NCBI GenBank assembly: GCA_043817075.1
Contig: JBDRHG010000023.1
Coordinates: forward strand, 11,315 to 75,314
Direction: 5' to 3'
DNA: 64,000 nucleotides
DNA from: an archaeon
Lineage (GTDB): Archaea; Nanobdellota; Nanobdellia; Woesearchaeales; JAADFO01
Below are positions 28,611 through 45,985 of this stretch, piece by piece. Within the stretch, counting starts at the first letter, position 1, and each line of letters opens with the position of its first letter. The position numbers and the translations under genes are program-made. The notes below the pieces were generated by a model. That model did not search any database and was not told the DNA's origin. It saw only the letters and a list, made by a program, of their open reading frames with translations.

Positions 28611-29702
28611 TCAGGGCAGCCAGCCCTTGTTGCTCTTGAGTTTCTTCGGCAGGTAGTCGGATATCACGAAATTCAGCCCCCACTTGGCCAAGGCCTGCTG
28701 TTCTGCCCTCACTTTCATCGTGATCATCTGCTTGAGTGCCACCTGCCACTCTTTGTGGGCCATGACGAATGGATCGTTCTTCAAGGCGTCCTTGGCACGT
28801 TTGATGTCGACATCCTTGAGCGGATGGGTCGGCAGCTTGTAGTCGATGACGTCCTGCGGGGTGACCCCGAGGAATTTGGCTTTCGGCACGCAGAAGAACT
28901 CATTGATGTGCGCTGCATTTCCCGATCCCACCTTCAGTGTCCGGTAGATATTCATGTGTCCGTATGGATCGTTATCGCAGAACACATACACGGGCAGCTC
29001 GTTCTCCTCGTTCAATTTGCGCATGAAGCGTCGGCATGAACGTGTCGGCACACCGCCCATGGAGATGAGGATGCAGTTGGAATTCTTCCAGAATTTATGC
29101 TTGTTGAGACGTTCGAACATACCTGCGGTCTCGATGGCCAGCACGAACGATGCCTTGGTCTCGAACTTGAGATGCTCCACGGATGATGGGACAGAGTAGG
29201 CGCCGCTGCCCATCTTGGTGCAGTCGATCTTGATCTCCTGGTCCGTGTCGGGATCGCGGTCGATGACGGTCAATTGACCAGCCACCGCTCCGCCATGCTC
29301 GCCAGGGATGAAGCCGATCTTCTCTCTGTTCACACGGAGCATGCCTTCGATGTCGTCCATGACGCTGTCTGACTCTGGCTGGTCCATGAACTTGGCGTCG
29401 CCCCAGTTCTTGCTGACATAGTACGCCTCCCTCTTCGTCGCGATGTCGTTCTGTTCGAGCAATTCCTTGGACAGTCCCATCATGCGTAGCGTCTGGGCGA
29501 AGGTCTTGATTGTGGATGCGGTGAGGGTACGTTCCTTCTCTTTTCCCACCAGTTCGAAGTAACCGTCCTTAGTGTCATAACGGACATTGGCAAGACTCCT
29601 GATAGGCATCTTCAGCGACGGTTGAACCTTCTTGATGATGCTCTTGTAGACATCTGTGGAGATGTCCTTGATCTGTTTGAGCGCATCACTCATCGTAATC
29701 AC
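28611..29702 (-). CDS. top6A: DNA topoisomerase VI subunit A (Spo11-like)
   Basis: 363 aa with the TOPRIM segment VFCDNDPYGHMNIY and the Top6A layout. Overlaps the top6B stop. Confidence 0.95.
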   Translation of the reverse strand: MITMSDALKQIKDISTDVYKSIIKKVQPSLKMPIRSLANVRYDTKDGYFELVGKEKERTLTASTIKTFAQTLRMMGLSKELLEQNDIATKREAYYVSKNWGDAKFMDQPESDSVMDDIEGMLRVNREKIGFIPGEHGGAVAGQLTVIDRDPDTDQEIKIDCTKMGSGAYSVPSSVEHLKFETKASFVLAIETAGMFERLNKHKFWKNSNCILISMGGVPTRSCRRFMRKLNEENELPVYVFCDNDPYGHMNIYRTLKVGSGNAAHINEFFCVPKAKFLGVTPQDVIDYKLPTHPLKDVDIKRAKDALKNDPFVMAHKEWQVALKQMITMKVRAEQQALAKWGLNFVISDYLPKKLKSNKGWLP

Positions 29703-31422
29703 CTAGTGCGGTCTGGCCCTTCTTCTCCTTCTCAGGTCCTGGCTCCTTGTCGTCTGCGGACGGAGCGTCCTCAGATTTCTTCTTACCCTTGTGGATGCCG
29801 ATCTTTGCCAGCTCTGGATCATAGTCTGGATTGTCGACCTCGAACTTCTCGAGCGTACCGCGCTTCTTCTCCAAGACGTCCTTCAAGGTCGACATGACTC
29901 GGCCTTCTTCCTGTTCGGAGAGGCCCAAGATATCCTTGAGCGCGCCCGCCACGTGAGGGATATACTTCTCGATGTAGGAACGTTTCTTGAACTCTTCGCC
30001 GACCCGCTTCTTCTTGTTGATGTAGGAGCCCAGCTTCCTGCCGACTTCCTGCAGTGCGAGACGGATGTCCTTGATGATCTCAGGATAGTGCGCGATGGCT
30101 TCCTTGCTCTCGCTGGTGAAGGGGACCCAGACGCTTGCGATGTGCACGACGATGGTGAGCGGACCGACCGGGATGGATCCCTGGCTCTGCGACAATCCGT
30201 AGCCGCGCCAGGACGTCCCGATGATTGATTTGGTCACGGCGCATGCGGACTGCTGGTACAGCAGCGGCACACGGTTTGCGAAGCGCATGATCCGTCCAGA
30301 CTCGTCGCCGGGCTGGTCGCCGCCGTAGGCCACACCGGCCTCGATGGCGAAGGGATTGCCCCTATACACATTGGGCGGTCTCGACACTGCGGCGTAGAAC
30401 TCTGCGTTGATCTCTTTTCGCATGCCTTTCTCCAGGAGTTCAGCACCTATGGGTGAGATGCAATCCGTCGGCGGCGAGATGATCTTTGTGTCGGCGATGC
30501 CCTTGATGAGTTTCTCTGCCATCTCGCGGGACACCACTTTTGGTTTTGTGTTGGGCAGGATGGCCGCTTCCTCGCAGATCTGTTTCGCCGTCCCTGGTCC
30601 CACGCGGGAGAACTCAGAGGTCAGGAAGGCTTGCAAGGTGCGGGCCTCGGTCACTTTCAGCATGCTCATGAGGCGGCCCAGCTCGACACCGTATGGATGC
30701 GGCTTGATCTCTTTGGACCTCGCCGGTATCTGGTCGGTCGATCGCGCGAATATCATCTGCGCGCCCTTCGGTGGCTGATAGATTATGGTGACGTGGGGAT
30801 TGACGATGGCGGTCTCCTTGAGGTATTCGTCGATGCTCTGTTTACCGCCGCTATAGGATGCCTCCAGGTCCAGTTCCACCCTGGTGCCGTGGTCCAGGGC
30901 GAACTCCACTATGTCCTCGGCCACGATCTCAGGCTTGTTCTTCTGGGTGTCCACATGCAGTTCATAGTAGTTAGCCGGATGGGTCTTGTCGATGCGCGAG
31001 ACTATCTTGGCAGGACGGCCTGTGGTCAGCTGCGCGTACATGACGGATGCGGAGATGCCGATTCCCTGTTGGCCTCGGGATTGTGAGAGCTTGAAGAATT
31101 TCGATCCATAGAGGAGCTTTGCGAAGATTTTGGGGATCTGTTCCTTGACGATGCCTGGACCGTTGTCCTCCACGATGACCCTGAACCGGTCATTGCCCAT
31201 GTCCACGACTTCGACCGTGATCTCGGGGAGTATGCCCACTTCCTCACATGCGTCGAGTGAGTTGTCCACCGCCTCCTTGATGGTGGTCATGAGGGCTTTC
31301 TTCTTGTTGTCGAAACCGAGGAGATGGCGGTTCTTCGAGAAGAATTCCGCGACGGAGATATCACGCTGTCCCTTTGCCAATTCCTGCGCTGCTATTGTCT
31401 TCTCTGCCATGTAGGCGATCAC
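29686..31422 (-). CDS. top6B: DNA topoisomerase VI subunit B (GHKL ATPase)
   Basis: Bergerat-fold motifs EAVDNSLDA and DNGPGI. 578 aa with an acidic/lysine-rich C-terminal tail. Confidence 0.95.
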   Translation of the reverse strand: MIAYMAEKTIAAQELAKGQRDISVAEFFSKNRHLLGFDNKKKALMTTIKEAVDNSLDACEEVGILPEITVEVVDMGNDRFRVIVEDNGPGIVKEQIPKIFAKLLYGSKFFKLSQSRGQQGIGISASVMYAQLTTGRPAKIVSRIDKTHPANYYELHVDTQKNKPEIVAEDIVEFALDHGTRVELDLEASYSGGKQSIDEYLKETAIVNPHVTIIYQPPKGAQMIFARSTDQIPARSKEIKPHPYGVELGRLMSMLKVTEARTLQAFLTSEFSRVGPGTAKQICEEAAILPNTKPKVVSREMAEKLIKGIADTKIISPPTDCISPIGAELLEKGMRKEINAEFYAAVSRPPNVYRGNPFAIEAGVAYGGDQPGDESGRIMRFANRVPLLYQQSACAVTKSIIGTSWRGYGLSQSQGSIPVGPLTIVVHIASVWVPFTSESKEAIAHYPEIIKDIRLALQEVGRKLGSYINKKKRVGEEFKKRSYIEKYIPHVAGALKDILGLSEQEEGRVMSTLKDVLEKKRGTLEKFEVDNPDYDPELAKIGIHKGKKKSEDAPSADDKEPGPEKEKKGQTALGDYDE

Positions 31423-31482: not shown

Positions 31483-32073
31483 CTACCGTAGTTTGGCGAG
31501 AAGTAGGTCCTTATCCGTCTCGTCGACGATGCCGTCGAGGTTGAGGTCGGAGAGGTATAACTGGTCCATGTCCAGGGATGAGAATCCGTCAAGGAAGGAT
31601 GAGAGGAGCAAGGCATCGTCGGGGGTCACCCTCCGGTCGGCATCGAGGTCGCCAAACATGACGGGCACCCTCGAGATCTTGCCATGGAGATAGTCTTCGA
31701 GTATCTGACGGTCGCGGGAATCCAGCCTGCCGTTGTCGTCGACGTCACCATAGGCCTTGTGCTCGGGCGTCGCGCGGGTATCGCCTCGCTCGATAGATCG
31801 GAGCAGGGCTTCGTCATCAGGATCGATGAGGCCATCACCGTTGACATCGCCTATCTCCCTCGTATTGTCGACGAGACGCGTCATGGCCTGTGCGGCCAGA
31901 TTCTCGCGGGCGGCGCCTGCAGCAGGAGGCAGAGAATAGAACACTTCCTCATCAGAGGCAGCATCCTGATTGCTGAGCAGGGTGATGGTCGCGGCCGCGA
32001 TGAGAAACACGATGGTCAGGGCGAGGATGAGCTTGTCCTCTTTTCCCTTGGGTATATGGGTAGGCCTAGCCAT
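31483..32073 (-). CDS. Membrane-anchored protein with two dockerin-type (paired EF-hand-like) modules
   Basis: Four Ca-binding-type repeats: GDVNGDGLIDPDDEALL, GDVDDNGRLDSRDRQILEDYL, GDLDADRRVTPDDALLL, SDLNLDGIVDETDKDLLLAKL. Start set to ATG 32073 (MARPTHIPKGKEDKLILALTIVFLIAAATITLL), ~25 nt downstream of a TATTTAAA box. Confidence 0.65.
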   Translation of the reverse strand: MARPTHIPKGKEDKLILALTIVFLIAAATITLLSNQDAASDEEVFYSLPPAAGAARENLAAQAMTRLVDNTREIGDVNGDGLIDPDDEALLRSIERGDTRATPEHKAYGDVDDNGRLDSRDRQILEDYLHGKISRVPVMFGDLDADRRVTPDDALLLSSFLDGFSSLDMDQLYLSDLNLDGIVDETDKDLLLAKLR

Positions 32074-32130
32074 GCAGGTTCCATACCCTCCCCACTTTAA
32101 ATACTTTTTGGCGAGGCTGACTCTCAATTG

Positions 32131-32682
32131 TTAGTCATCTGTCGATAGGCCCATGCTGCGCATCTTGAGCGCAGAACGCATCTTCTCCAGCCAGGTATAG
32201 ACCTTCTTATGCGGGCTTCCCCGCACCAGCATCTCGATGGCCCTCCTGGCGATAGAGAGGTTGCTGGGATCACCGATGATGCAGACCGTCTTGCCGTATA
32301 CAGAGATGCTGGTCTCTGTCAGATCCTCGATGATGCGTCGGGTCTTTCCGTCCTGGCCGATGATGCGGCCCTTGATGCGCAGCAAATCGGTCTTGTTCCG
32401 TGAGAAATCCTGTATATTGATAGATTCGAACAGATAGTCTGATTTGAGCAGTTCCATGGCGGTCTCCGGATTGAAGCCCCGGGCTACTGCCAGGATGATC
32501 TCCCTTGTGGTATAAAGCTTTATCGCGTCCTCTCCCTCGACGAAGACGTCGCCCTCTTTGGAGTCGACCTTCAATCTGGTGTCGGTATCCTCTTCGAGGC
32601 GTTTCTTGATCTCGCCGTTCTTCCCGATCAGGACCGCGACCCTCTCCTTGGGGATCTTGAGCTCGTAGGAAAAAGTAGTCAT
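32131..32682 (-). CDS. KH-domain RNA-binding protein (archaeal Dim2/Pno1-like)
   Basis: Two KH motifs (VLIGKNGEIKKRLEE, GRIIGQDGKTRRIIED). Start set at ATG 32682 (MTTFSYELKIP), 28 nt downstream of a TATTTAAATA box. Confidence 0.8.
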   Translation of the reverse strand: MTTFSYELKIPKERVAVLIGKNGEIKKRLEEDTDTRLKVDSKEGDVFVEGEDAIKLYTTREIILAVARGFNPETAMELLKSDYLFESINIQDFSRNKTDLLRIKGRIIGQDGKTRRIIEDLTETSISVYGKTVCIIGDPSNLSIARRAIEMLVRGSPHKKVYTWLEKMRSALKMRSMGLSTDD

Positions 32683-32770
32683 AGCCTCGGAGGAGCCGGG
32701 GTTATATTTAAATACTTTTGCTGGAATACCGACCAAAAGGTATTTAAACGTCTAATATGAGAAAGGTAGC

Positions 32771-33109
32771 ATGCCAGAACATGATCCTCAAGCGGTCAAG
32801 CAGGAGTTCTCATCAGGTATGCGCCAGTTACGAGATTCGGTGATGCAACTCAATACCTTGCTCGAGCCCATGGCTGAGAAGAACATCTCGTCGCGAAATC
32901 CCCTGTTCGAGAAGAAGCTCGAGGTCCATAGGAGTCTTCTCGATCTCGTCCGGCAGCAGGAGGAACTGTCCGAGGGCATCATCGCTCTGCTCCAGGTCAT
33001 CGACGAATACGCGACCTCTCGTGTGCGGAGACCGCCTATGCCCCCTCCGCCCAGGCCGGCCAATAATCCATTCATCCTCGGCGAGGGAGCAACCCAAAAC
33101 TTTAAATAG
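32771..33109 (+). CDS. Hypothetical coiled-coil protein with proline-rich C-terminus
   Basis: 112 aa. A TATTTAAAC box lies 28 nt upstream of the ATG. It sits immediately upstream of the pilin-like cluster, and the cluster's TATA box is at its 3' end. Confidence 0.45.
   Translation: MPEHDPQAVKQEFSSGMRQLRDSVMQLNTLLEPMAEKNISSRNPLFEKKLEVHRSLLDLVRQQEELSEGIIALLQVIDEYATSRVRRPPMPPPPRPANNPFILGEGATQNFK
33100..33108 (+). promoter_or_regulatory. Putative TATA box (CTTTAAATA) of the pilin-like cluster
   Basis: ~60 nt upstream of ATG 33166. A GGTGAT Shine-Dalgarno-like element lies at 33154-33159. Confidence 0.4.
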
Positions 33110-33165
33110 TACAATAGTTATTGTCAGTTCGTTACGAAAATCGATAAAAAAAGCGGTGATTGTTG

Positions 33166-33738
33166 ATGATGTCCAAGAAGGCAGAAAAATCTCTCCAAAT
33201 GATATTCGGGCTCTTCATCCTTCTCATCATCTCTCTGGTGGTGCTGAGCCTTTTCTTCAAGTTCACTGAGAAATCCAGTTCGTCCATGGCCACGGCTTCG
33301 GACGAGTGGTTCTCCAAAGCGGCGATCGACAATGCCCAACAGGAATGTGAGGTGTTGTGCGAGAACATCAAGGATGTCAACACCGGCATCGAGTTCTGCA
33401 AACGGTATATGCGGATAGACTTCACTGGTGACAACCTCTTGGAGGATATGTACTCCTATGGTCAATGGGATATCTGTGAAGACAAGGTGCCGTGCTTCGT
33501 GCTCGTCGACAACTGCAAAGGTGGGACGTATGACGGCAACAAATGTCATGATCTGCTCGTTTCCCGACGGAATGACGCATACATAGCTCTCATCAATGAG
33601 ATGGACGTCGGGCAGGCTGATGCTGATGAAGGCACCTGTGGACTTGATGACGAGGATATCGCCATCACCAACAACTGGAAGATCAAGTTCGATTTCCTAG
33701 GTGGTGCCCTAATCGATCCGTATGCACCGATTCCCTAA
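33166..33738 (+). CDS. Cluster protein A: prepilin-like N-terminus, Cys-containing extracellular domain
   Basis: MMSKKAEKSLQMIFGLFILLIISLVVLSLFF (basic segment then hydrophobic helix). The ORF-track start at 33160 is TTG, and I prefer ATG 33166. SD-like GGTGAT upstream. Confidence 0.65.
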   Translation: MMSKKAEKSLQMIFGLFILLIISLVVLSLFFKFTEKSSSSMATASDEWFSKAAIDNAQQECEVLCENIKDVNTGIEFCKRYMRIDFTGDNLLEDMYSYGQWDICEDKVPCFVLVDNCKGGTYDGNKCHDLLVSRRNDAYIALINEMDVGQADADEGTCGLDDEDIAITNNWKIKFDFLGGALIDPYAPIP

Positions 33739-33753
33739 TTTTTTTTTCTTCTT

Positions 33754-35667
33754 ATGATTCCATCAAAACGGGCGGCGACCGTCATCAACATCGTGCTTCT
33801 TATCGCAGTCCTCGTCGTGTCCATCATCGTCATGTTCTCCCTGCAGAAGATATTCAACTGGCAGGCCCGCGCTGTCGAGACCGACACCGCATCCGCTATC
33901 GTCGAGATGATCCAGATCGAGATCGAGCGCGTGCTGCAGAAACGTGAGGACACGGATTTCTCCATCAGCATCCCTTACGCCGTAGACTACAAGGCCAACA
34001 TCTCACAGGGCAAGATCACCATGGAGTTCTTGGAGTCCGACATATCGGTCAAGAAGAATTTCATCATCCCCAACAGCCACGTGCTGCCGAGCGAATTCGA
34101 GAGCGCGGGCACGGTCCATATCTACAAGTTCGGCCGCACCATCCTCGTCACCAACAATCTCACCTGTGAGCCGCTCGACCAGCGATGCGATCCTGGCTGC
34201 GCGGTGTTAGGGATATGCGATCGGCAGTGCTACCGGGACAATACCGTCGACTTCGTGTGCAACCAGATATGCATCGACACCAATAATGACGGCAAGTCGG
34301 ACGGCAGGGATGCCGACGGCATCTGCGACCCCGACTGCTATGACAACGAAAAAGGCGGATTCTATTTCGACATCGATTGCATGCGGACAGACGACGGCAT
34401 CTGCGATCCTGACACCCATAATGTGCGGGATGGATTCTGCGACACCGATTGCGCCGGCACGAACGGCGTATGCGATGTGGACTGCACCGCTATCCTCGGC
34501 GCCTTCGATGCGGACTGCACCCATCGTCGCAACGGGGCATGCGAGACGCAGCTCGGCGAGAACTGCCTGTTCTATCCCGAGGATTGCGATTGCGGAGCCG
34601 GGCGGGCATGCAAGTACGGCTGCGCAAAGGACCCGCCCTATACCTTCGACCCGGATGGATGGGGTTGCGTGCCGGCGGCCGAGAATGTAGGCACCGGTCT
34701 GGAATGCGCTTCGTCCTGCCAATGCGGAGGGGACGACCGTTGCGACCATACCGGCCATTGCTGTCCTGAAGAGACATATTTCAACGGTGCAACGTGCGTG
34801 AGGTACGACAGCGACGGTACCTGCACTACGGATGATCCCTTGTTCCCGGCAGAGACCTGCCTGACGTCAACGATGGATTGCCTCTGCGCGACCGATCCGG
34901 ATAATCCGGTCTGCTGTCCAGGCGCAATCACCGGGACAAAGGACGGATGCGCACCGAAGATCGACGAAGGTGCATCGGCGGAGCCTTGTTGGTGCGACGG
35001 ACAATGCTCGGGCCAGGACAAATGTAAGAACAACCATTGTTGCGGTCCTGGATATATCTGGGATGACGTTGCCGGCGTTTGTGTGCTTGATCCAAGCGGC
35101 TGCGAGATACCTGAGCAGGCTCAGTTCCCTGGATGCAATTGTCAGAAGATGCCGAGCCTCTGTAGCGGTGGGCAGGTATGCTGTGCCTCAGGTCCGAACC
35201 TCAACGAGGATACCCTATGCTCCGACGGTTCCGGCAATAAGGGTACTGGTGAGGGTTGTGATTGCGGCACCGAGTGTTCGTCAGGCATCTGCTCACCTAT
35301 CCCCCGATATTCCCGTTGCGTGCCAACTCGTTGGTACCATTGCCGCGGGAGCGATTGCCAGCTGGAGTTCGTAGAGGACGTAACGATCAACATCGCGGAT
35401 CCCACGGCGTTCGGCCTCAACTGTGATGACCACAATACCTTGGACAATTTCGTGAGGAATGCCGCGGGCTATGAGGAGACCGATCCGATGACTGGTGCCG
35501 TCACACGGCCATACTCTGCGCTCGACGCTTGTCTCCCACTGAGTGACGGCATCATCTGCAATATCCAGAACACTGGTGGGGATATCTGCTATGCGACCCA
35601 AGGCAATCCTCTGAACCACTGGGAGCGTCATTTCCCCAATGATTGGGAGGTCAACTATTGGGATTAG
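33754..35667 (+). CDS. Cluster protein B: N-terminally anchored, extremely cysteine-rich surface protein (637 aa)
   Basis: N-terminal KRAATVINIVLLIAVLVVSIIVMF. About 62 Cys by my count. Repeated DG(I/V)CD(P/V/T)DC units and four C.C...C....CC(P/G) units. Confidence 0.75.
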   Translation: MIPSKRAATVINIVLLIAVLVVSIIVMFSLQKIFNWQARAVETDTASAIVEMIQIEIERVLQKREDTDFSISIPYAVDYKANISQGKITMEFLESDISVKKNFIIPNSHVLPSEFESAGTVHIYKFGRTILVTNNLTCEPLDQRCDPGCAVLGICDRQCYRDNTVDFVCNQICIDTNNDGKSDGRDADGICDPDCYDNEKGGFYFDIDCMRTDDGICDPDTHNVRDGFCDTDCAGTNGVCDVDCTAILGAFDADCTHRRNGACETQLGENCLFYPEDCDCGAGRACKYGCAKDPPYTFDPDGWGCVPAAENVGTGLECASSCQCGGDDRCDHTGHCCPEETYFNGATCVRYDSDGTCTTDDPLFPAETCLTSTMDCLCATDPDNPVCCPGAITGTKDGCAPKIDEGASAEPCWCDGQCSGQDKCKNNHCCGPGYIWDDVAGVCVLDPSGCEIPEQAQFPGCNCQKMPSLCSGGQVCCASGPNLNEDTLCSDGSGNKGTGEGCDCGTECSSGICSPIPRYSRCVPTRWYHCRGSDCQLEFVEDVTINIADPTAFGLNCDDHNTLDNFVRNAAGYEETDPMTGAVTRPYSALDACLPLSDGIICNIQNTGGDICYATQGNPLNHWERHFPNDWEVNYWD

Positions 35668-35676
35668 TGAGCACTC

Positions 35677-36270
35677 ATGAGACACACCCTCCTTTTGCTC
35701 GGAAGCTTTCTCATCCTCATCGCTACGGTCCACGCTCTCGGTTTCTGTGGGGACAACGATTGCGGTGGCACAGAATCATACTATTCTTGTCCGGATGATT
35801 GTCCGGAATCCGGCTGGGACCAGTCATGCAATCCTTCCAGGAATGGCGATTGCGATCCCGATTGCCGCGAGCGCGATCCTGACTGCAGGGAGTATCTCAT
35901 CGAGTCGGGCGCCATCCAGAAGGAAGAGCTCCCGCCATCCATGAGGCCGCCGAGCATCCAACGCGTGGTGTTATTCCTGCTCATGTTCACCATGATGGGT
36001 GTCTTTCTCTTCATCGTGGTGCATAAGATCAGGCACAAGGGACGGACGGAAGGCAGCCCTCGTCAGCCTGTGCAACCGCCGCCGTCTCAGCCACCTCTGC
36101 AGCAGATCGAGCAGCAGTACGTCCAGCAATACGCACAGCAGTATGCACGGCAATATTCTCAGAACCAGGCTGGACAATACAATAATCGACCGCAACCTCA
36201 GCAGCAACCTTTTCAACCGCCCCCTCAACAGCCCCAACGACCCCAACAGCAATGGAGGCAGAACCCATGA
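35677..36270 (+). CDS. Cluster protein C: signal peptide, CGDxxCG...CPDDC Cys module, TM helix, Q/P/Y-rich tail
   Basis: MRHTLLLLGSFLILIATVHA signal. FCGDNDCGGTESYYSCPDDC...GDCDPDCRERDPDC. TM VVLFLLMFTMMGVFLFIVV. Tail QQIEQQYVQQYAQQYARQYSQNQ...PQQQPFQPPPQQPQRPQQQ. Confidence 0.7.
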   Translation: MRHTLLLLGSFLILIATVHALGFCGDNDCGGTESYYSCPDDCPESGWDQSCNPSRNGDCDPDCRERDPDCREYLIESGAIQKEELPPSMRPPSIQRVVLFLLMFTMMGVFLFIVVHKIRHKGRTEGSPRQPVQPPPSQPPLQQIEQQYVQQYAQQYARQYSQNQAGQYNNRPQPQQQPFQPPPQQPQRPQQQWRQNP

Positions 36271-37028
36271 TCTGGACCAAGAAGGGTTCGACGTCGCTGA
36301 CCACCAAGACGCTCTACGCGGTCTTCCTCGTCATCTTCCTCTCTTTCATCGCGTTTACCGTGGTCAACTCCAGGTCGTCGGTCCTGTCACAGAAAGAATT
36401 CTTCGATTCCCATAGGCATGTCGACAATTTCTTCGCCGCGCTCCTGACCAGTCCCTGTACTGTCCAGGAGCATTATCCTGTCATCGATGGCCGGACGAGC
36501 GACCGAAACTACCAGATCGAGACCGAGGGCTATCTCATGGTGGACAAGCTGACCTATCTCGACAAGGAGAACAAGGACATCTATTGCGTCGACAGCTACC
36601 ATTTCCTCTATACGGTCATCATCGAGGACCTCATGAACAAGAAGGAATGGGTGTTGGGGCTCCGTGGTGAGCCGAACTGGGCCTATGGCGACCAGGGGAC
36701 GCATGTGATCTCCCGGTCTTACCCGGTCGCGCTCAACTATAATTTCGCTGAGATCCATCCTGGATATGCCACCATATATGCCTATGTCGGAGACATCCCG
36801 CGGCTGTACGGCACCATCAAGATGGCCTGCGTCGCCCGTGATCAGCGGTCATTGTCGCTCGATCTGCCAGTGGATATCAAGTTCACGACCGAATATGGGG
36901 AATTCTGCATAGGCGCGGAATGCTTCTTCGCTTTCTTTCCCTGCAGGGTGAAGGAATTCTCCATCCCTGCTGGAGAAAGGCTCGTTCTCATCACACCGAA
37001 GGATGACGGCGTCGAGGTGATGGTCTGA
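36267..37028 (+). CDS. Cluster protein D: prepilin-like N-terminus
   Basis: MIWTKKGSTSLTTKTLYAVFLVIFLSFIAF. I chose ATG 36267, which forms an ATGA overlap with the stop of protein C and has GGAGG 8 nt upstream. Confidence 0.7.
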   Translation: MIWTKKGSTSLTTKTLYAVFLVIFLSFIAFTVVNSRSSVLSQKEFFDSHRHVDNFFAALLTSPCTVQEHYPVIDGRTSDRNYQIETEGYLMVDKLTYLDKENKDIYCVDSYHFLYTVIIEDLMNKKEWVLGLRGEPNWAYGDQGTHVISRSYPVALNYNFAEIHPGYATIYAYVGDIPRLYGTIKMACVARDQRSLSLDLPVDIKFTTEYGEFCIGAECFFAFFPCRVKEFSIPAGERLVLITPKDDGVEVMV

Positions 37029-37516
37029 TGAAGAAGGCCCAGATGCAAGAATTCATAGGTATCGTCCTCCTGATCCTCGCACTCGTCATGTTCGTCATGT
37101 TCGATCGCGTCAGCTCGACGGATTCAGCCCTCTCGAGGGCTGAGAGTATAGCGGAAGGGCGTGGAAGAGGGAATATCTGGGCAGGAGCCAATATCATGCT
37201 CTATTCCACGTTGGAGGGTGTCATGCTCATCAATCTGCTTGGAGACCATGTCTGCAAGAATGTGACCGAGGTGACTTATGGTAGGAATAGAAACATTAAT
37301 ATATCCAATTTTCTCATGACGGTATTAACTGCCTATTACGGGGAAGGACACTGGTCTTTCGAGCTCCGCTCGGTGAACGGGACCAAGTGCTATAATCCTG
37401 GGCTCTTCCATCGCTCATGCGCCTTCCCCGACGAGCTCGATTACAGGGCATACGACATTACACATCCAATGCCCTGCACAAGAAGCTTTGGAGAGGGGAC
37501 GCTCTATGTCTATTAA
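37028..37516 (+). CDS. Cluster protein E: prepilin-like N-terminus
   Basis: MKKAQMQEFIGIVLLILALVMFVMF. Its ATG overlaps the preceding stop (TGATG). Confidence 0.7.
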   Translation: MKKAQMQEFIGIVLLILALVMFVMFDRVSSTDSALSRAESIAEGRGRGNIWAGANIMLYSTLEGVMLINLLGDHVCKNVTEVTYGRNRNINISNFLMTVLTAYYGEGHWSFELRSVNGTKCYNPGLFHRSCAFPDELDYRAYDITHPMPCTRSFGEGTLYVY

Positions 37517-39371
37517 AAAAAGAGGACAGATGTTTACCTTGATTTTCTTTATTGCCATCATCATCGGCATATTCGTGCTGGTGCAATACACACGACAGGA
37601 CTACGAGGTCCAGTTGCAGGACGGTCAGACGGCTGAAGAAGCCGCCCGTCTCGTGCTGGATTCTGTGATCAACGCTCTCAAGGGCGAGGTCACTGCCGTG
37701 TTGCGGGACTCGGCTGAGCAGGCCGTGTTCGATTCGGCTGCCGCAGCCATCGATGCTGAGAACGGTTATCTCGTATCGTATGGTCTGAGCTCTATGCCTC
37801 CTTTGGCTGAGGCCAAGGACAACCTTGAGGCGCGCACGCTCGATTATTGCAATGCGTGGTTGTCTGACCTCAACGGCAAGGAGCTCAACGGCGCGGTGAT
37901 CGAATCCGAGGGGACGCTCTCACAGATCACTGTATGGGTCGACGAGCTCGACCTGGTGAGCGGCGACCGTGACGAGGCCTTCAATATCAGCGGAGAGGCA
38001 GCGACCGGTCCCATCATCGCGGTGGAGCCGTCGGTCGTCGAGATGAATGTGGATGATGAGTTCACCTTCGACATCACGTTGAACAATGTGGAAGGCGCCA
38101 ACGTCGCATTCTATGTGCTCACCTATGATCCTGCCAAGCTGCAGATCGTCAACCCTGCTCTGGACATATCGGAAGGATTGTTCTTCAAGGAAGCCGGTTC
38201 GACCACCACTTTTACCCCTTATAGTGAAGCGGTGGGTAAATATGAGATCCTGCTCGCCATGATGGATGAGACCTCCGGAGCTTCCGGCAAGGGCAACATC
38301 ACCACCATCAAGTTCAAGGCGCTCGAGCTGGGTGAGACCTACATCACCATCGAGTCCGGCAGGGTCGGCCTCAACACGGACCAGGTCTTCAACACGGAAG
38401 ACAATTCGCTCAGCGTCAACAGGGCCCAAGTCGTCATCAAGGACGGCGAGCTCGCCGATCCGGTCTATCCCAAATACGGTGAGGCAGGCAAGCTGACCAG
38501 CAGTTTCGAGATCACCTCTGGCAACGGTCAGGGTCTCAGAGAGGAAGTGGAAGTCCCCTACTCCTTCACCACCCAAGTCCAGGGTCTTCGCTATTGGTAT
38601 GTGTATCGACACCTGTACGGATGGGTCCAGCAGGACGTCATCTCTGAGAAGACCTGCGCCCACATGCCTATCGTCAAGGGCAATGCCTCCAATGAGCCGG
38701 ACAATCCGACTCCTGGATGGCTCGAATGCTATGCGCCCGGCATGACCGACGAAGTGGTCGATACGATCGTCGACGAGAGCATGGCTGATCTCATGGCAAG
38801 AATGGACGGCGACGTCCAATGCACTTGGGACATCCCCTGCAGGTTCGTCGAGACTGAATTCATCTGGAAGGATCCTTGCGAAGGCGAGGATGTCGACTAC
38901 GCCACATGCGTGGGTTGGCCTTGCCAGGCCTACGAATCGAATGACAGCTGCTTTGCCGGCGGTTGCAGGACTGATGAGAACTGTGAGGCCTATGGAGATT
39001 ATGGTAGTCCGGGTTGCCAGGACCCCAAACCGATTAACTACACTGGTCAATACGTGAGGAAGACCGGGACACCGGTCATCGCCAATAACTACCATCCCTC
39101 GGGATCGATCACGTATTCGGAGAAGCACCATATCCGTTTCCTCGTCGATGTCCAATGCGTCGACAGGGCCAGTGTGGACACCAATCTGGGTGAGTTGACC
39201 TGGGATTTCAAGCTGCATGTGTCCATGGACAGAGGCGATGAGCCTGACGATCCGCCATGCCCCTGCGAAATCGGTGGCGGCGGTGGCGGTGGTACTGCGC
39301 CTGAGCCTGAAGACCCAGATAATGATAACAGCGACAACACGCAGTCAAAGACCAAGACTACAACCAATTAG
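37506..39371 (+). CDS. Cluster protein F: prepilin-like N-terminus plus cohesin-like module
   Basis: MSIKKRGQMFTLIFFIAIIIGIFVLV (ATG 37506; the ORF-track start 37488 is TTG). The segment IIAVEPSVVEMNVDDEFTFDITLNNVEGANVAFYVLTYDPAKLQIV...GKGNITTIKFKALELGETYITIESGRV follows the cohesin pattern. C-terminal Cys-rich part and a G7 tract. Confidence 0.7.
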   Translation: MSIKKRGQMFTLIFFIAIIIGIFVLVQYTRQDYEVQLQDGQTAEEAARLVLDSVINALKGEVTAVLRDSAEQAVFDSAAAAIDAENGYLVSYGLSSMPPLAEAKDNLEARTLDYCNAWLSDLNGKELNGAVIESEGTLSQITVWVDELDLVSGDRDEAFNISGEAATGPIIAVEPSVVEMNVDDEFTFDITLNNVEGANVAFYVLTYDPAKLQIVNPALDISEGLFFKEAGSTTTFTPYSEAVGKYEILLAMMDETSGASGKGNITTIKFKALELGETYITIESGRVGLNTDQVFNTEDNSLSVNRAQVVIKDGELADPVYPKYGEAGKLTSSFEITSGNGQGLREEVEVPYSFTTQVQGLRYWYVYRHLYGWVQQDVISEKTCAHMPIVKGNASNEPDNPTPGWLECYAPGMTDEVVDTIVDESMADLMARMDGDVQCTWDIPCRFVETEFIWKDPCEGEDVDYATCVGWPCQAYESNDSCFAGGCRTDENCEAYGDYGSPGCQDPKPINYTGQYVRKTGTPVIANNYHPSGSITYSEKHHIRFLVDVQCVDRASVDTNLGELTWDFKLHVSMDRGDEPDDPPCPCEIGGGGGGGTAPEPEDPDNDNSDNTQSKTKTTTN

Positions 39372-39420
39372 GCCCTCAGGGCCATTTTTTATCTTTCTTT
39401 TCCTTCTCTCTTTTTGCAAA

Positions 39421-39430
39421 CCTTTAAATA
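39421..39430 (+). promoter_or_regulatory. Putative internal TATA box (CCTTTAAATA) before the FlaJ/TadC-like gene
   Basis: Lies in the 83-nt gap after protein F, which also holds T-rich runs (CCATTTTTTATCTTTCTTTTCC). Centred ~29 nt upstream of ATG 39455. Confidence 0.4.
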
Positions 39431-39454
39431 GCCACCTTGCGGGAAAACAGTCAG

Positions 39455-41620
39455 ATGGTCGACGGTTACGGTAACATCTCGGACATCGAAAAAGAGGTGG
39501 CGGCAAAGCTCCGGTCCATGGAGACCGATGGGACCAACGAGCTCGATATCTTCTCTGGCTCATACAAAGAGTTCAAGGAGGAGGAGCGAAAGGAGTATGC
39601 CCTAAATACCTTCTTCGAGCGCTACTGCAAGTTCGCTTCTGGCTACCTCAACTTCTTCAAGCTCAAGGACAAGACCAAAGAGGAGATGCAAGAGAGCATC
39701 GACATCGCCGGATTCACCCGCATCACACCTGAGGATGTGTTGGCATCGAGCGTGTTCACCTTGATCGCAGGACTCTTCCTGGCGTTGCCCTTCTTCATCA
39801 TGTCTTTCCGAGACTTCTCCTATTTCCTTGTCGCCAGCGGCATGTTCATGGCATATGCCGGATTCTCCTATCCCGCTTTCTTCGCCCAGATCACCAAGAT
39901 GAAGGCGCAAGAGGAATCGATCCTGGCCATCCTCTACATCACTATCTACATGCGGGTCAGTCCGGTGTTGGAGAACGGCATGTATTTCGCCATCCAGCAT
40001 CTCAACGGGCCTTTGGGCAAGGACATCAAGGCCATGCTCTGGATGCTGGACATGGGAAAAGCGTCTTCTGTGGAGACTGCCATGAAGCCTTTCATGGACT
40101 TATGGATCAAGCGTAATCCCGACTTCGTCAAGGCCTTCTTGACCCTTCACTCTGTTCTCGACCAGGACAGCGAAGCGGAGCGCGAGAAGATCCTGGAGAA
40201 GTCGTTGCACACCATCCTGGACAACACCTTCATCAAGATGAAGCACTATTCGCATGACCTCAAGACGCCGGTACTGCTGCTGCACACCTTCGGGATGATG
40301 CTGCCGCTGATCGGACTCATCGCTTTCCCCATGGTCAGCGTGTTCATGTCCGACTCCATCAGGATCGAATACCTCTTCTTCGGCTACATCGTGGTGCTGC
40401 CATTATTGCTCTTCTTCCTGACCAAGCGCATCCTTGCCAAACGTCCGGGCGCGTTCTCCTTTCCAGACCTCAAGGAGAATCCCTATCTCCCTCCTGAAGG
40501 GATGTACATGCTCACCTTCAACAACAAGCGGTACTATATCCCTGTGTTCAGGGTCGCGATCGCCATCGGCATCATCATCATGCTGCCTGGGATCGCTTGG
40601 GTGATCACCCACACCATCCCGGAGACCATGATGGTCATGCAGCAGGCCGCCGACGTAGGTATGCAGGGCGTCGGCCAGATAGCAGCAGAAGGCGAATACA
40701 CATTCGTCGCGATGATGTTCACTCTGCTCATCCCGCTCGGGCTCGCGCTCACGTTCTCCATATACTTCTACTTCCGAAGCATCCAACGGCTAAGGGTGAG
40801 GAATTCCATCGTAGAGATCGAAGAGGACCTCGATGAGGCGCTGTTCCAGCTCGGCCAACAGTTCACTGACGAGGTGCCCATAGAGATTGGACTGCAGAAC
40901 TATATCCGAGACGCTCAGATGCTCAACCTCAAGCAACGTAGCATCTTCCATTTCTTCAAGCTGACCATGGACCGTATCCAGGAAGAGGGGGTGACGTTCT
41001 CCAACGCCGTGTTCGACAAGACCAATGGCATCATCATCCGATACCCGTCGATCCTGATGCAGGAGATCATGTGGATCGTGGTGGAGGGCACCAAGAAAGG
41101 CGCCAAGACGCTGTACACAATCATGACCAAGATCAGCGTCTACCTCAACAACACCAAGAAGATCAAAGAGCTCATCTACGACCTGCTCACCGAGACCGTA
41201 TCCTCCATCAATGTCCAGGCGAAGTTCTTCTCGCCCTTCCTGTCCGCCATCGTAGGAAGCCTTACGTTCATCATCGTCCAGGTGCTCTGGCAGATGGCGA
41301 AACGGTTGGAGAACATCATGAAGATCCTCAACTTCGGGTCGGGAGACGACACGTCGTTCTTCTCCGACCTCATCAACTTCACCCGCATCATCCCGCCCAC
41401 TGTCTTCCAGATATTGGTCGGCATCTATCTCGTCGAGACCGTGATGCTGCTCTCTGTGCTCGCCAGCGGAGTGGAGAGCGGATTCGACAAGGTGAATAGG
41501 GACGTGACCATTGGGAAGAACCTATTGTATGCCATCATCACCTATATGGTGCTCACCATCATGGGCATCATCGCACTGCAGGGACTCATAGAGAGCGGCA
41601 TCGCATCGACAGGAGCGTGA
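39455..41620 (+). CDS. Cluster protein G: polytopic membrane protein, FlaJ/TadC/T2SS-F-like platform (tentative)
   Basis: 721 aa from ATG 39455 (the ORF-track start 39437 is TTG). It contains two copies of a soluble helical segment followed by TM helices. The segments GPLGKDIKAMLWMLDMGKASSVETAMKPF and EEDLDEALFQLGQQFTDEVPIEIGLQNYI resemble the T2SS-F repeat. This is assigned by pattern only. Confidence 0.5.
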   Translation: MVDGYGNISDIEKEVAAKLRSMETDGTNELDIFSGSYKEFKEEERKEYALNTFFERYCKFASGYLNFFKLKDKTKEEMQESIDIAGFTRITPEDVLASSVFTLIAGLFLALPFFIMSFRDFSYFLVASGMFMAYAGFSYPAFFAQITKMKAQEESILAILYITIYMRVSPVLENGMYFAIQHLNGPLGKDIKAMLWMLDMGKASSVETAMKPFMDLWIKRNPDFVKAFLTLHSVLDQDSEAEREKILEKSLHTILDNTFIKMKHYSHDLKTPVLLLHTFGMMLPLIGLIAFPMVSVFMSDSIRIEYLFFGYIVVLPLLLFFLTKRILAKRPGAFSFPDLKENPYLPPEGMYMLTFNNKRYYIPVFRVAIAIGIIIMLPGIAWVITHTIPETMMVMQQAADVGMQGVGQIAAEGEYTFVAMMFTLLIPLGLALTFSIYFYFRSIQRLRVRNSIVEIEEDLDEALFQLGQQFTDEVPIEIGLQNYIRDAQMLNLKQRSIFHFFKLTMDRIQEEGVTFSNAVFDKTNGIIIRYPSILMQEIMWIVVEGTKKGAKTLYTIMTKISVYLNNTKKIKELIYDLLTETVSSINVQAKFFSPFLSAIVGSLTFIIVQVLWQMAKRLENIMKILNFGSGDDTSFFSDLINFTRIIPPTVFQILVGIYLVETVMLLSVLASGVESGFDKVNRDVTIGKNLLYAIITYMVLTIMGIIALQGLIESGIASTGA

Positions 41621-41991
41621 AGAGAATCGAAACTGGAATATTCAGGTACGGCATGATCCTTCTCGGCTTCATCATGGCCGGGCTCCTGATAGCATTCGCC
41701 CTCAAGGCGTCCTACACCATCGACATCGACATCGACCATCGGGAACAGCATGTCGAGGGCGACTCTGAGACGATCATTACGGTGATACCTAAGTTGTGTG
41801 ATGCCTGCATGAGCAAGAGAGATGTGGACAGGGACTGCTATCTCCTGTACGCGACCATCACCGACGGTCAGATAACGGCTGATGATCTCAGTATATACAA
41901 TATGGAAGACCTCGATGTGCCCGGGGCCGGAAATTATATATTCAAGATACAATCAGAAGAGAACAACTGCACGGTGAGGCAAATTGGCTAG
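41617..41991 (+). CDS. Cluster protein H: small prepilin-like protein
   Basis: GTG start in a GTGA overlap with the stop of G. (V)KRIETGIFRYGMILLGFIMAGLLIAFAL. Its C-terminal Cys pattern is related to I/J/L. Confidence 0.55.
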   Translation: MKRIETGIFRYGMILLGFIMAGLLIAFALKASYTIDIDIDHREQHVEGDSETIITVIPKLCDACMSKRDVDRDCYLLYATITDGQITADDLSIYNMEDLDVPGAGNYIFKIQSEENNCTVRQIG

Positions 41992-42931
41992 GAAAAGACG
42001 CAACAAGAAGGAAGGAGACATCGCGATCAACACCATCTTCGTCATATTCGTCGCGGCGATCAGCATCCTGTTGCTCATCGCGCTGTTCGCAGGCAAACTG
42101 CCGACGTTCGCCAAGACCATCTATTGCAAGACCTTCTTCCGCATCCAGTCATCGACGTATTTCCCTGAAGCCATCCGCGTGGACACCGATTTCTGCGCCT
42201 CGGAAGGGCGTATGGGAAGCCATTACATTTTCAAGCAGGAAGATGTGCTGCGGGAATTCTCTGACGGGCAACAGGTGTTCAGGCACCAAGGAAGTGGTGT
42301 GGATGGTTATCTTTCAGCTCCGTTGACCGTTCCGAACAGCGAGATCCTCGACGCGACCGCTGAGGTGGTGGTTCTGGAATCGATCGGATTGGGTGATCCA
42401 GTCACCCTCAGCTTCAACGTGGGGGACCGCACAATCCCACCACGTTCTATCCTAGCATTCCCTGTGAACGAACCTATACGGGTGAACTTCGCCACTTTCC
42501 TCGAAACAGCCATGGCTGCATGCACAGGTCCTGAATGCGAGTTCGACCTAAATTTCTGGTATGGATCAACCAATCCAGCATATGGGATCCGTTACGCGGT
42601 CCAGAATCTTGAGATCACCTATGAGCGCTGCTTCGTAAAGGAGGAAATCATCGCGGGTATGTTGGCCTGCTATGAGAAGGCCTCCTACGGCGAGCGCAGA
42701 ACGAGCCTCATCTGCGACGAGCTCACGCTCGATCCTAGCTGTGAGGAAAGCTATCCGATCACAGATGCTACGGTGGCGACGACGCTTTGGGAGAACGGTC
42801 TCTGCGAGGTCCTCACGAATGGCGATGTTTGTCTCGGGGACAATGTGGATTTCGAGCTGGACGAGGTCACGAAACGCACCAATGTCCTGATTGAATATAT
42901 AGGCGATACGCGCCATATCCGGGTGAGCTAA
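41984..42931 (+). CDS. Cluster protein I: prepilin-like N-terminus plus shared C-terminal module
   Basis: TTG start with GGTGAGG 5 nt upstream and no in-frame ATG before the TM. ARKRRNKKEGDIAINTIFVIFVAAISILLLIALF. Ends ...TNVLIEYIGDTRHIRVS. Confidence 0.65.
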   Translation: MARKRRNKKEGDIAINTIFVIFVAAISILLLIALFAGKLPTFAKTIYCKTFFRIQSSTYFPEAIRVDTDFCASEGRMGSHYIFKQEDVLREFSDGQQVFRHQGSGVDGYLSAPLTVPNSEILDATAEVVVLESIGLGDPVTLSFNVGDRTIPPRSILAFPVNEPIRVNFATFLETAMAACTGPECEFDLNFWYGSTNPAYGIRYAVQNLEITYERCFVKEEIIAGMLACYEKASYGERRTSLICDELTLDPSCEESYPITDATVATTLWENGLCEVLTNGDVCLGDNVDFELDEVTKRTNVLIEYIGDTRHIRVS

Positions 42932-42947
42932 GATCAAGAAAGGAGAC

Positions 42948-45005: not shown

Positions 45006-45008
45006 AAA

Positions 45009-45524
45009 ATGACATTCGTGGTCACGAACAACAAGGTCTTCAAGGAGTTCAATACCTTGAAGGGTGCTGTCGCATTCCTCGAGAAATCCAACGAATTCGG
45101 GCTGCGTATCGCCGAGCGTGACGCATTCGGCAACCTTGCCGACGTCGACGAGAGCGCAGTCGCTGAGGTGCGTGAGGAGGTCAAGGCCCAGATCATGGCC
45201 GCGCAAGAGGCCGAGGAGATAGAGGGTGTGGTCAGTCCGCCGAAAACCATTCCGGCGGCAACAGGCACAGCAGCGGTCGGGGTGACAGGAACAGCTCCAG
45301 GACAACCTGTCCCTCAGACAGGAGCCGCTGCTTCGACCGCTGTACCTGCATCCACAAAACCTGTTCCAGAGAAGCAGGAAGAGAAGACGCCCGTGGACAA
45401 GCCTACGCTCTTCATCAAACTCGGAGCCTTGGCCGTGATCGGTACCATATTGGTCGTGGTGTTCCTCCGTATCGTGCTTCCTATCATCATCGATTTCATG
45501 CGGACATGGAGGTCGATCCCATGA
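45009..45524 (+). CDS. Cluster protein K: small soluble N-domain, P/T/A-rich linker, C-terminal TM (tail-anchored)
   Basis: MTFVVTNNKVFKEFNTLKGAVAFLEK...; linker PAATGTAAVGVTGTAPGQPVPQTGAAAS; TM LGALAVIGTILVVVFLRIVLPIII. Confidence 0.6.
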   Translation: MTFVVTNNKVFKEFNTLKGAVAFLEKSNEFGLRIAERDAFGNLADVDESAVAEVREEVKAQIMAAQEAEEIEGVVSPPKTIPAATGTAAVGVTGTAPGQPVPQTGAAASTAVPASTKPVPEKQEEKTPVDKPTLFIKLGALAVIGTILVVVFLRIVLPIIIDFMRTWRSIP

Positions 45525-45985
45525 CAGCAAAAAGAGGAAACCTGGGTATAAACTACATCTTCGCTATATTCGTCTCGCTCATCGTCGTGTTCGTCATCAT
45601 CGCCTTGGTGTCGAACTGGGCCTTCGACGCCAACAAGCTCTTCGCCAAGATCTTCCCCAGCGAAGACGACAGCAACCTCCTGGACCGGCAGATCATCGAA
45701 GTCCCTCCCGCTGACTGCGACCGGCTTGAGAGCGAAGTGGCAAAGCACGGTAAGATATGCTACACCAAGGCCCGTCAGGGCAAGGTCGAGGGAACGGACT
45801 GGGCGTTGTGCTATGGTATCGTCAGCGATTGCCCCGCTTCCGCTGGACAGACCTATGCGGGAGTCGAGACGCTCTTGGGTGACACCCTCGCAACGGATGA
45901 GATGGACATCCAGAGCACGGGTCGCCTCTCCAACAATGTCCTCGTAGGCTATGATTATAGCGAGAAACGGGTCACGATCAGTTAG
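45521..45985 (+). CDS. Cluster protein L: prepilin-like N-terminus plus shared C-terminal module
   Basis: ATG 45521 in an ATGA overlap with the stop of K and GGAGG 8 nt upstream. MTAKRGNLGINYIFAIFVSLIVVFVIIAL. Ends ...NNVLVGYDYSEKRVTIS. Confidence 0.65.
   Translation: MTAKRGNLGINYIFAIFVSLIVVFVIIALVSNWAFDANKLFAKIFPSEDDSNLLDRQIIEVPPADCDRLESEVAKHGKICYTKARQGKVEGTDWALCYGIVSDCPASAGQTYAGVETLLGDTLATDEMDIQSTGRLSNNVLVGYDYSEKRVTIS

Follow-up and report, generated by a model that had tools for sequence, protein, structure and literature searches.

Do a cohesin module and a pair of dockerin modules that are encoded 5.4 kb apart in an archaeal genome bind one another at the cell surface? The question arises in a 64-kb stretch of DNA, here called the window, from an uncultured, ultra-small archaeon of the Woesearchaeota, within the DPANN group (Diapherotrites, Parvarchaeota, Aenigmarchaeota, Nanoarchaeota and Nanohaloarchaeota). 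The cohesin lies within F, a pilin-like protein encoded in a conserved Woesearchaeota operon of about 14 genes (32771-46498). The dockerins belong to Doc, a small protein encoded on the other strand. Judged from sequence, it is quite possible, at just short of an even chance, that the F cohesin and Doc form a calcium-dependent coupling at the cell surface. The features on which the argument turns are listed here.

37506..39371, + strand: F, a pilin-like protein of 621 amino acids (Pfam, phmmer, family alignment)
38004..38489, + strand: cohesin insertion in F, about 160 amino acids, residues ~167-328 (alignment with 16 relatives, segment-wise phmmer)
31483..32073, - strand: Doc, 196 amino acids, with an N-terminal hydrophobic helix, a linker of about 40 amino acids and two tandem dockerin modules (Pfam, PDB match)
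31975..32031, - strand: N-terminal hydrophobic helix of Doc, residues 15-33, preceded by IPKG (hydropathy scan)
31669..31857, - strand: dockerin module 1 of Doc, residues 73-135, loops DVNGDGLIDPDD and DVDDNGRLDSRD (Pfam, PDB match, loop regular expression)
31486..31659, - strand: dockerin module 2 of Doc, residues 139-196, loops DLDADRRVTPDD and DLNLDGIVDETD (Pfam, PDB match, loop regular expression)
32131..32736, - strand: KH-domain housekeeping gene (Pfam KH_1 / KH_KRR1_2nd)

The initial annotation had proposed a cohesin in F and, in Doc, four calcium-binding repeats amounting to two dockerin modules behind an N-terminal anchor. Both assignments stand, and each protein passes the corresponding Pfam cut-off. 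Model PF00963 (Cohesin) matches residues 175-291 of F, nucleotides 38028-38378, at E 1.9e-10; the score is 41.5 bits, where 24.1 is the gathering threshold. A phmmer search with F against 1.84 billion representative sequences returned 171 matches; about 120 of the 150 best, which were listed, align solely to residues ~165-300 of F, through cohesin modules of their own. F alone found no match by phmmer among PDB sequences. A profile built from the F segment plus 25 cohesin segments taken from the phmmer matches finds 30 solved cohesins, with 3l8q (ScaB) the best at E 7e-19, and it also matches the Archaeoglobus fulgidus cohesin 2xdh.

Doc is matched by PF00404 (Dockerin_1) in two stretches at E 4.3e-13, scoring 49.7 bits where 22.9 would suffice. 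Its best match among PDB sequences, 8x3a/8x39 (a 'Serine protease' fragment; E 5e-15), extends over residues 73-190 and thus across both modules, and the four loop-helix segments of Doc align with this double dockerin. From the matching molecule name alone, the PDB entries are taken as dDoc_0689 of Clostridium thermocellum (Chen 2024). The pattern D-x-[DN]-x-[DN]-G-x-x-x-x-x-D describes the calcium loops. Three of the four are canonical; the third, DLDADRRVTPDD, has R in place of the usual G and keeps its acidic ligands. All four loops retain the calcium ligands of positions 1, 3, 5 and 12. Searched as a regular expression in all six frames of the 64 kb, the loop matches solely those of Doc, which places the dockerin observation far beyond chance. 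Pfam finds no domain in Doc besides the dockerins.

The N-terminus of Doc reads MARPTHIPKG-KEDK and is followed by the 19-residue helix at 15-33, the only segment reported by the hydropathy scan (15-31, mean 2.66). The KG at residues 9-10, then polar residues, then the helix, is the same layout as in operon proteins E, I, L and M. The helix may be either a signal anchor or a class III-like signal peptide. By eye, a TATA-like element, TATTTAAA, and GGAGG precede the ATG and a run of T follows the stop codon, so Doc looks like an independent gene.

Is the cohesin an original part of F or an addition to it? Starting from the N-terminus, F consists of a leader (MSIKKRG, then Q) with its helix, a family N-domain (residues 1-166), the cohesin insert, a Cys-rich family C-domain (329-~610) and a tail rich in Gly, Pro and Asp. 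Among the 150 listed phmmer matches, 27 align to F 1-165 and/or to the Cys-rich region at 345-610, and none of the 27 to the cohesin segment. These matches are 380-600 amino acids long, and the named ones are titled 'hypothetical protein [Candidatus Woesearchaeota archaeon]'; the F family is specific to Woesearchaeota and consists of hypothetical proteins. When F and 16 relatives are aligned with MAFFT, residues ~167-328 face a clean gap in 16/16, and the insertion is flanked by the family-conserved motifs DxxF and GE..RYWYxYR. The clean gap in all relatives identifies the cohesin as a domain insertion into a conserved, two-domain pilin-like protein. The cohesin segment is absent from 27/27 F-family clusters and from 8/8 syntenic loci, and among these the insertion is unique to this genome.

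The start of F also bears on its nature. Full-length members of the family share a short basic leader ending in [KR]-[GA]-[ST], followed by about 20 hydrophobic residues, with the N-terminal consensus MxxxKxGSxFxTxFFIAxV; the motif [KR][GA][ST]xF is kept across the family. The layout matches an archaeal class III (prepilin-type) signal peptide, and the leader motif deviates from the strict FlaFind pattern. F itself, beginning MSIKKRG followed by QMFTLIFFIAIIIGIFVLV, shows the charged leader ending in G or A and the hydrophobic helix of about 20 residues. The public gene call (P0001, 613 amino acids) begins at MFTLIFF (37530) and lacks the KKRGQ leader; with that start, the prepilin-like signal is hidden from automated annotation. 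Comparison of homologs favours a start at 37506 or 37488. Beyond the N-terminus, the carrier domains of F have no detectable likeness to known pilins in a profile search of PDB sequences, where the F-family profile found no relative.

The setting of Doc tells a parallel story. Doc lies in a co-directional string on the - strand, in the order KH, Doc, topoisomerase VI subunit B (TopoVI-B), TopoVI-A. The initial annotation described it as a divergent neighbour of the pilin-like cluster, a description that has to be revised, as the KH gene intervenes and Doc runs in the direction of KH, TopoVI-B and TopoVI-A. In 73 related loci with both KH and TopoVI-B, the median gap between the two is 33 bp; here it is 709 bp and contains Doc. 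Doc is absent from 73/73 of those junctions, and is thus a lineage-specific gene inserted between KH and TopoVI-B. Membership of Doc in the conserved operon was ruled out, given its absence from 8/8 syntenic loci and its place past the KH gene on the opposite strand. Insertions recur at this junction: about ten of the 73 Woesearchaeota loci (L072, L074, L039, L032, L071, L077 and others) hold other, unrelated genes there, and the inserts include Cys-rich secreted or lipoprotein-like proteins (L072, L074).

Composition gives both additions the look of the genome around them. The cohesin insert has a G+C content at third codon positions (GC3) of 0.762, like the rest of the gene and genome, and Doc, with G+C of 0.587 and GC3 of 0.716, is also genome-like. 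These values rule out recent horizontal transfer of Doc or of the insert, and the native composition marks both as established residents. Could the arrangement be an artefact instead, from a chimeric contig or a mis-called open reading frame (ORF)? The contig is metagenome-derived, and the public call for F has a different start. We nevertheless consider an artefact very improbable: the insertion is in frame within a 621-residue ORF, has family-conserved motifs on both sides and matches the genome in composition, Doc is a clean ORF with promoter-like, ribosome-binding-site-like and T-run signals, and the flanking genes are syntenic with those of relatives.

In 87 related loci, 1.24 Mb in all, the search found neither a Doc homolog nor a cohesin. 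Joint, lineage-specific gain of the two modules, which are absent from 27 F clusters, 8 operon copies and 73 junctions, favours a functional pair. In this lineage, F gained its cohesin as a domain inserted where its two conserved domains adjoin, and Doc, a separate lineage-specific gene 5.4 kb from F, encodes a membrane-tethered tandem dockerin. Predicted topology places the F cohesin and the Doc dockerins outside the cell. In the mechanism that we propose, after export, one dockerin of Doc would bind the cohesin of F in a calcium-dependent manner, and this binding would couple an F-containing assembly to membrane-proximal Doc. The second dockerin would stay free for another cohesin, on a second copy of F, on another surface protein of the cell or on a protein of a partner cell, and Doc would be an anchor or bivalent adaptor, not cargo. 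If the pairing is real, the PKG and helix of Doc may be processed as a prepilin, putting plug and socket on the same kind of filament, a tentative addition against which we would lean. Binding of this type has precedents. Archaeal cohesin-dockerin pairs bind specifically (Bayer 1999 and Haimovitz 2008, as cited in later work). C. thermocellum has double dockerins that stand alone, and one of the two dockerins directs them to a scaffoldin attached to the cell (2025 review).

Several observations weigh against pairing of F and Doc. The pair is known from one genome, too few for a phylogenetic test of co-occurrence. Doc lies outside the operon, on the other strand and among housekeeping genes; the junction it occupies is promiscuous, so proximity to F could be coincidence, and the recurrent insertions there weaken any argument from position. 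Single-sequence AlphaFold2 models of both proteins are too low in predicted local distance difference test score (pLDDT) to be usable, at 32.8 for F, where residues 186-272 show beta strands only and with low confidence, and at 41.3 for Doc. The nearest solved relatives of the F cohesin profile are type II cohesins, and those of Doc are type I dockerins; to our knowledge, clostridial type I and type II cohesins and dockerins do not cross-bind, and typing is unreliable at such divergence. The census spans 64 kb of the genome, and other cohesins or dockerins may exist. As for the presumed assembly, a type II/IV secretion ATPase was not found in the window by tblastn, nor a prepilin peptidase by Pfam among its 38 long ORFs, which were the ORFs covered by the Pfam scans, and the operon's polytopic membrane protein, G727, has no match to Pfam T2SSF (PF00482), to NCBIfam or to PDB sequences.

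Some of these points would be expected if both modules were functional without being mutual partners. The F cohesin would then take dockerins encoded elsewhere or by another organism, Doc would plug into other cohesins, and their proximity would be accidental. The place of Doc on the opposite strand outside the operon, at a junction where about 10/73 relatives have unrelated insertions, agrees with this, as do the type II-like cohesin facing type I-like dockerins and a view limited to 64 kb. Anaerobic methanotrophic (ANME) archaea and locus L088 have large cohesin/dockerin sets, giving many possible pairings. Such independence is nonetheless somewhat unlikely. Neither module was found again, be it in the rest of the window or in the 1.24 Mb from related Woesearchaeota, both were gained in the same lineage, and the chance of finding one cohesin gene and one dockerin gene within about 6 kb of each other, in a genome assumed to be about 1 Mb, is ~1% by our estimate.

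A further alternative is that pairing was lost or never present, with the cohesin-like beta-sandwich of F serving as a spacer or adhesive domain and Doc as a small calcium-binding membrane protein, such as a stabiliser or sensor. Non-cellulosomal cohesin-like and dockerin-like modules are widespread and mostly of unknown function (Peer 2009, as cited in later work), and in the solved double dockerin of C. thermocellum the second module has been called 'functionally ambiguous' in review. The R for G in the third loop of Doc fits this account as well, and so do calcium-type and Cys-rich repeats in other operon proteins, for example DTNNDGKSDGRD in C637. We regard it as improbable, since both modules score far above their Pfam cut-offs and the calcium ligands are intact in all four loops, since the archaeal cohesin-dockerin pairs tested so far do bind, and since it leaves the joint appearance of complementary modules in one lineage unexplained.

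What would a cohesin-dockerin coupling do here? The initial annotation suggested a plug-and-socket way of loading cargo onto a surface filament. The complementary modules are real and lie ~5.4 kb apart, and a plug and socket is a reasonable idea; cargo loading is not what Doc shows, as it has no cargo domain. With only a helix, a linker of about 40 residues and two dockerins, this neighbouring gene cannot illustrate cargo loading, and Doc would act as anchor or adaptor, or be a small pilin in its own right. Other dockerin-bearing ORFs, which the same annotation had named as candidate cargo, number zero within the window, the span to which that count applies; no further cohesin or dockerin was found there either by Pfam in the 38 long ORFs or by motif scans. 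A cellulosome was ruled out: only one cohesin is present, Doc lacks an enzyme domain, and the Pfam scan of 38 ORFs detected no glycoside hydrolase.

Cohesins and dockerins in archaea had been described in the initial annotation as only sporadically reported, which understates their occurrence, as ANME archaea carry from tens to more than 100 such domains (50-150 per genome). The A. fulgidus pair AF2375/AF2376 and the ANME repertoires resemble F and Doc in being archaeal extracellular proteins that bear a single cohesin or dockerin and are unconnected with cellulose degradation. Binding between the two A. fulgidus proteins is specific and has been exploited in designer cellulosomes. Unlike in A. 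fulgidus and ANME archaea, the F cohesin interrupts a pilin-like subunit from a conserved, pilus-like operon, the tandem dockerin of Doc is joined to a membrane helix and brings no cargo, and the organism belongs to DPANN. Our literature search found no report of cohesin-dockerin modules in DPANN or on archaeal pilins.

The best solved match to Doc by sequence is the double dockerin of an S8 protease of C. thermocellum, dDoc_0689, whose structure is solved (Chen et al. 2024, as summarized in a 2025 review). It too has two tandem modules, versions 'with no partner' domain also exist, and its first dockerin targets a cell-bound scaffoldin in an anchoring role. The clostridial protein is secreted and usually fused to the S8 protease; Doc instead combines a membrane or prepilin-like helix with dockerins only.

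Cohesins on anchor or prepilin-like N-termini also occur in other uncultured organisms, as two further loci indicate. L088, a 6.2-kb contig of ENA ERZ23878311, has five consecutive genes whose products combine an N-terminal hydrophobic helix with cohesin and/or dockerin, P0069 having both. P0049 (L089), of 1446 amino acids, starts with MKRGQ followed by ISSNVFVYIL, and has three cohesins, DUF4215 Cys repeats and a C-terminal transmembrane helix. The proteins of L088 and P0049 are unrelated to the F family and lie outside the conserved operon, and their N-termini may be plain signal anchors.

To which machinery would F belong? The genes of the operon other than F are these.

32771..33109, + strand: orf112, encoding a small soluble protein; the operon's first conserved gene (its L090 ortholog, E 2e-22, immediately precedes that of B)
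33160-33738, + strand: B192, prepilin-like N-terminus
33754-35667, + strand: C637, Cys-rich, prepilin-like N-terminus
35677-36270, + strand: D197, the only gene from B to E2 without a prepilin-like N-terminus
36252-37028, + strand: E258, prepilin-like N-terminus
37028-37516, + strand: E2_162, prepilin-like N-terminus
39437..41620, + strand: G727, polytopic membrane protein with about 8-9 hydrophobic segments and two large soluble regions (hydropathy, orthologs)
41617-41991, + strand: H124, pilin-like (N-terminus)
41984-42931, + strand: I315, pilin-like (N-terminus)
42948-45005, + strand: J685, pilin-like, with the von Willebrand factor type A (vWA)-like metal ion-dependent adhesion site (MIDAS) motif DTSGS (N-terminus, motif)
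45009-45524, + strand: K171, not pilin-like (N-terminus)
45506-45985, + strand: L159, pilin-like (N-terminus)
45986-46498, + strand: M170, pilin-like (N-terminus)

A metagenome scan with an alignment of six F-family sequences retrieved seven loci, whose ORFs were compared by profile searches. The gene order B-C-D-E-E2-F-G-H-I-(extra paralog)-J-K-L-M is complete in L081 and L082 and partial in L083, L084, L086 and L087. Orthologs of B to E2 keep the same order in L081, L082, L083, L087 and L090, and H to M have syntenic orthologs in L081/L082. The extra paralog, a single gene of 742 codons between I and J, is seen in L081/L082. In the closest genome, GCA_016926055.1 (best match to TopoVI-A, 77%), locus L090 has orf112-B-C-D-E-E2-F followed by unrelated genes. 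Conservation of orf112 with the cluster in L090 sets the beginning of the cluster at 32771, and, as the operon ends there after F, the G-M half must lie elsewhere in that genome. The F ortholog in L090 (contig JAFGPE010000047.1) is P0002, of 455 amino acids and without cohesin, followed by genes for an amino-acid kinase and an EamA protein on the other strand.

Among the 13 larger operon proteins, 10 have one N-terminal hydrophobic helix. In seven of those ten (B, C, E, E2, F, L and M) a [KR]-[GA] motif stands directly before the helix, and I315 has KKEG; the form in B, C, E and E2 is [KR][KR]?[GA] and then the helix. This agrees with the initial annotation, which had placed the cohesin on a prepilin-like N-terminus within a pilin-like cluster, and the leader of F is conserved in its family. 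Apart from the cohesin, no match of an operon protein to a Pfam or NCBIfam family was obtained, B192 to E2_162 included. G727 is the best-conserved gene, with orthologs scoring 720-800 bits at about 50% identity (L081-L086). A 28%-identical paralog of G727 directly follows a 761-residue ATPase of the T2SSE family in L043, L005 and L029, so that in related genomes a T2SSE ATPase adjoins the paralog. No internal duplication was found in G727 (hhalign of the two halves, probability 0.2%). From its topology and the paralog beside the ATPase, we infer that G727 is a candidate platform component of the FlaJ/TadC type, and that the operon, with about ten prepilin-like proteins plus G727, may encode a type IV pilus-like surface assembly.

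Such an assembly would use an ATPase and a prepilin peptidase encoded elsewhere. In the bindosome of Sulfolobus, large functional proteins carry class III signal peptides. Archaeal type IV pilus (T4P)-like systems include clusters with class III signal peptides, a TadC/FlaJ-type membrane protein, vWA proteins and adhesins, and their ATPase/TadC modules are able to serve, in trans, pilins whose genes lie at other loci (Makarova et al. 2016, PMC4858521), so an operon without an ATPase of its own is not anomalous. The present operon differs from those systems in that G727 lacks detectable T2SSF/FlaJ homology and that the ATPase and peptidase were not found in the window.

The cohesin is one of several modules carried by these subunits and their orthologs. 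The ortholog of C in L083 (139-1272, +) has a papain-like Peptidase_C1 domain (E 1e-40), and that in L082 (5757-7808, +) a weak Peptidase_M64 match; C637 in the window has neither peptidase, having instead Cys-rich stretches and the calcium-loop-like motif DTNNDGKSDGRD. Two F orthologs, at L083:3564-5417 (+) and P0004 (617 and 600 amino acids), carry a C-terminal Hint module (CFPAGT...VHN; Pfam E 5e-9). This Hint/intein-like module sits between the Cys-rich domain and a Pro-rich tail. It hints that a pilin-like protein of the surface undergoes autoprocessing or ligation. In L086, the E2 ortholog has double the length of E2. J685 contains a vWA-type MIDAS motif, IIDTSGSM (Pfam VWA, E 0.011). 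Comparison across genomes shows the large pilin-like subunits as carriers of variable extracellular modules. F joins a prepilin-like N-terminus to a Pfam-defined cohesin, the combination that marks a modular pilin, and its relatives without cohesin indicate that the module was grafted on. Separately, I315, J685 and L159 share a C-terminal module ending in ...N[VI]L[IV]EY....[KR].I.VS.

Modular type IV pilins are well represented in bacteria, with more than 1,200 examples in 264 architectures, peptidase and vWA modules included (Raynaud et al. 2021, PMC8179133). The survey also describes Streptococcus sanguinis PilB with vWA, PilC with a lectin module, and GspK with a domain inserted within the pilin. 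As in those proteins, a carrier pilin in the operon would present a grafted module, with J685 vWA-like and orthologs bearing peptidase or Hint. In the accessible part of the Raynaud 2021 catalogue (Dataset S1), no cohesin (IPR002102) architecture appears; two proteins there have a prepilin N-terminus followed by two dockerin type I repeats (IPR012902-IPR002105-IPR002105; identities from PMC5244752). The catalogue is of bacterial pilins, whereas F is archaeal and has its module placed between two domains instead of added at an end.

Non-cellulosomal archaeal cohesins and dockerins, bacterial modular pilins, and T4P-like loci of archaea that include vWA proteins and adhesins are thus already established. 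What is new is the combination of a cohesin inserted in a pilin-like subunit of a conserved DPANN operon with a double dockerin, cargo-less and borne on a membrane helix or a pilin, gained alongside it. Taken together, the arrangement resembles a connector of the cellulosome type put to new use on a pilus-like surface apparatus.

Attachment to other cells is the presumed way of life of DPANN archaea, and the molecules of contact are almost unknown. In one further scenario, a long shot in our judgment, the cohesin and the spare dockerins on a pilus-like structure would serve as a device by which the symbiont latches onto surface modules of a host archaeon. The hosts would be Methanosarcinales or ANME-type cells, for instance, which encode tens to hundreds of cohesin/dockerin modules. 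Generalised, the operon would be a display system that swaps effector modules (peptidase, Hint, vWA, cohesin) between lineages. If this were true, cellulosome-type connectors would be hardware for docking between species.

Short of that scenario, F and Doc are a concrete candidate protein-protein interaction, from two small domains, in a conserved and otherwise unannotated Woesearchaeota operon. If the pair binds, the role of cohesin-dockerin recognition extends from enzyme scaffolding to archaeal pilus-like machinery, and a new orthogonal pair becomes available for synthetic biology. If it does not, the operon still defines a useful new set of families of modular pilin-like proteins in archaea.

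The window otherwise represents an ordinary archaeal chromosome, with both subunits of phenylalanyl-tRNA synthetase (PheRS alpha and beta), ABCE1, an M17 peptidase, SecY, a DnaG-type primase, MscS channels and tRNA-Cys/Arg. TopoVI-B (29686-31422, -) is 66-74% identical to its counterparts in 80 metagenome-assembled genomes (MAGs) titled Woesearchaeota, Nanoarchaeota or Nanoarchaeia. Dozens of third-party annotation (TPA) MAG records titled 'uncultured Methanosarcinales archaeon' (loci L002-L004, L007, L012 and others) have a TopoVI-B 70-74% identical to the one here and the same KH-TopoVI synteny; their labels are probably wrong.

Two low-GC islands stand out in the window, whose overall G+C is 0.535. 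At 23775-25004 (-) and 48578-49405 (+), they have G+C of 0.34 and 0.38 and GC3 of 0.33 and 0.30. One is an ORF of 409 amino acids without Pfam match and the other encodes a DUF3800 protein, and both are likely foreign DNA. The island at 48578-49405 lies just past the operon and an unannotated gene of 634 codons (46502-48406, -). About 5 kb from the operon, 51574-53097 (-) encodes a 507-residue protein with a SurA-like N-terminal region, a PPIC rotamase and thioredoxin-like domains, which could be an extracytoplasmic foldase or disulfide catalyst near an operon rich in Cys-rich surface proteins. A Rotamase_2 isomerase has been reported beside loci resembling the type II secretion system (T2SS) in Omnitrophota (bioRxiv 10.1101/2023.11.21.568195). 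Finally, a 451-residue protein encoded at 17213-18568 (-) has a Lamin Tail Domain (LTD; E 4e-14) and is a probable further surface protein.

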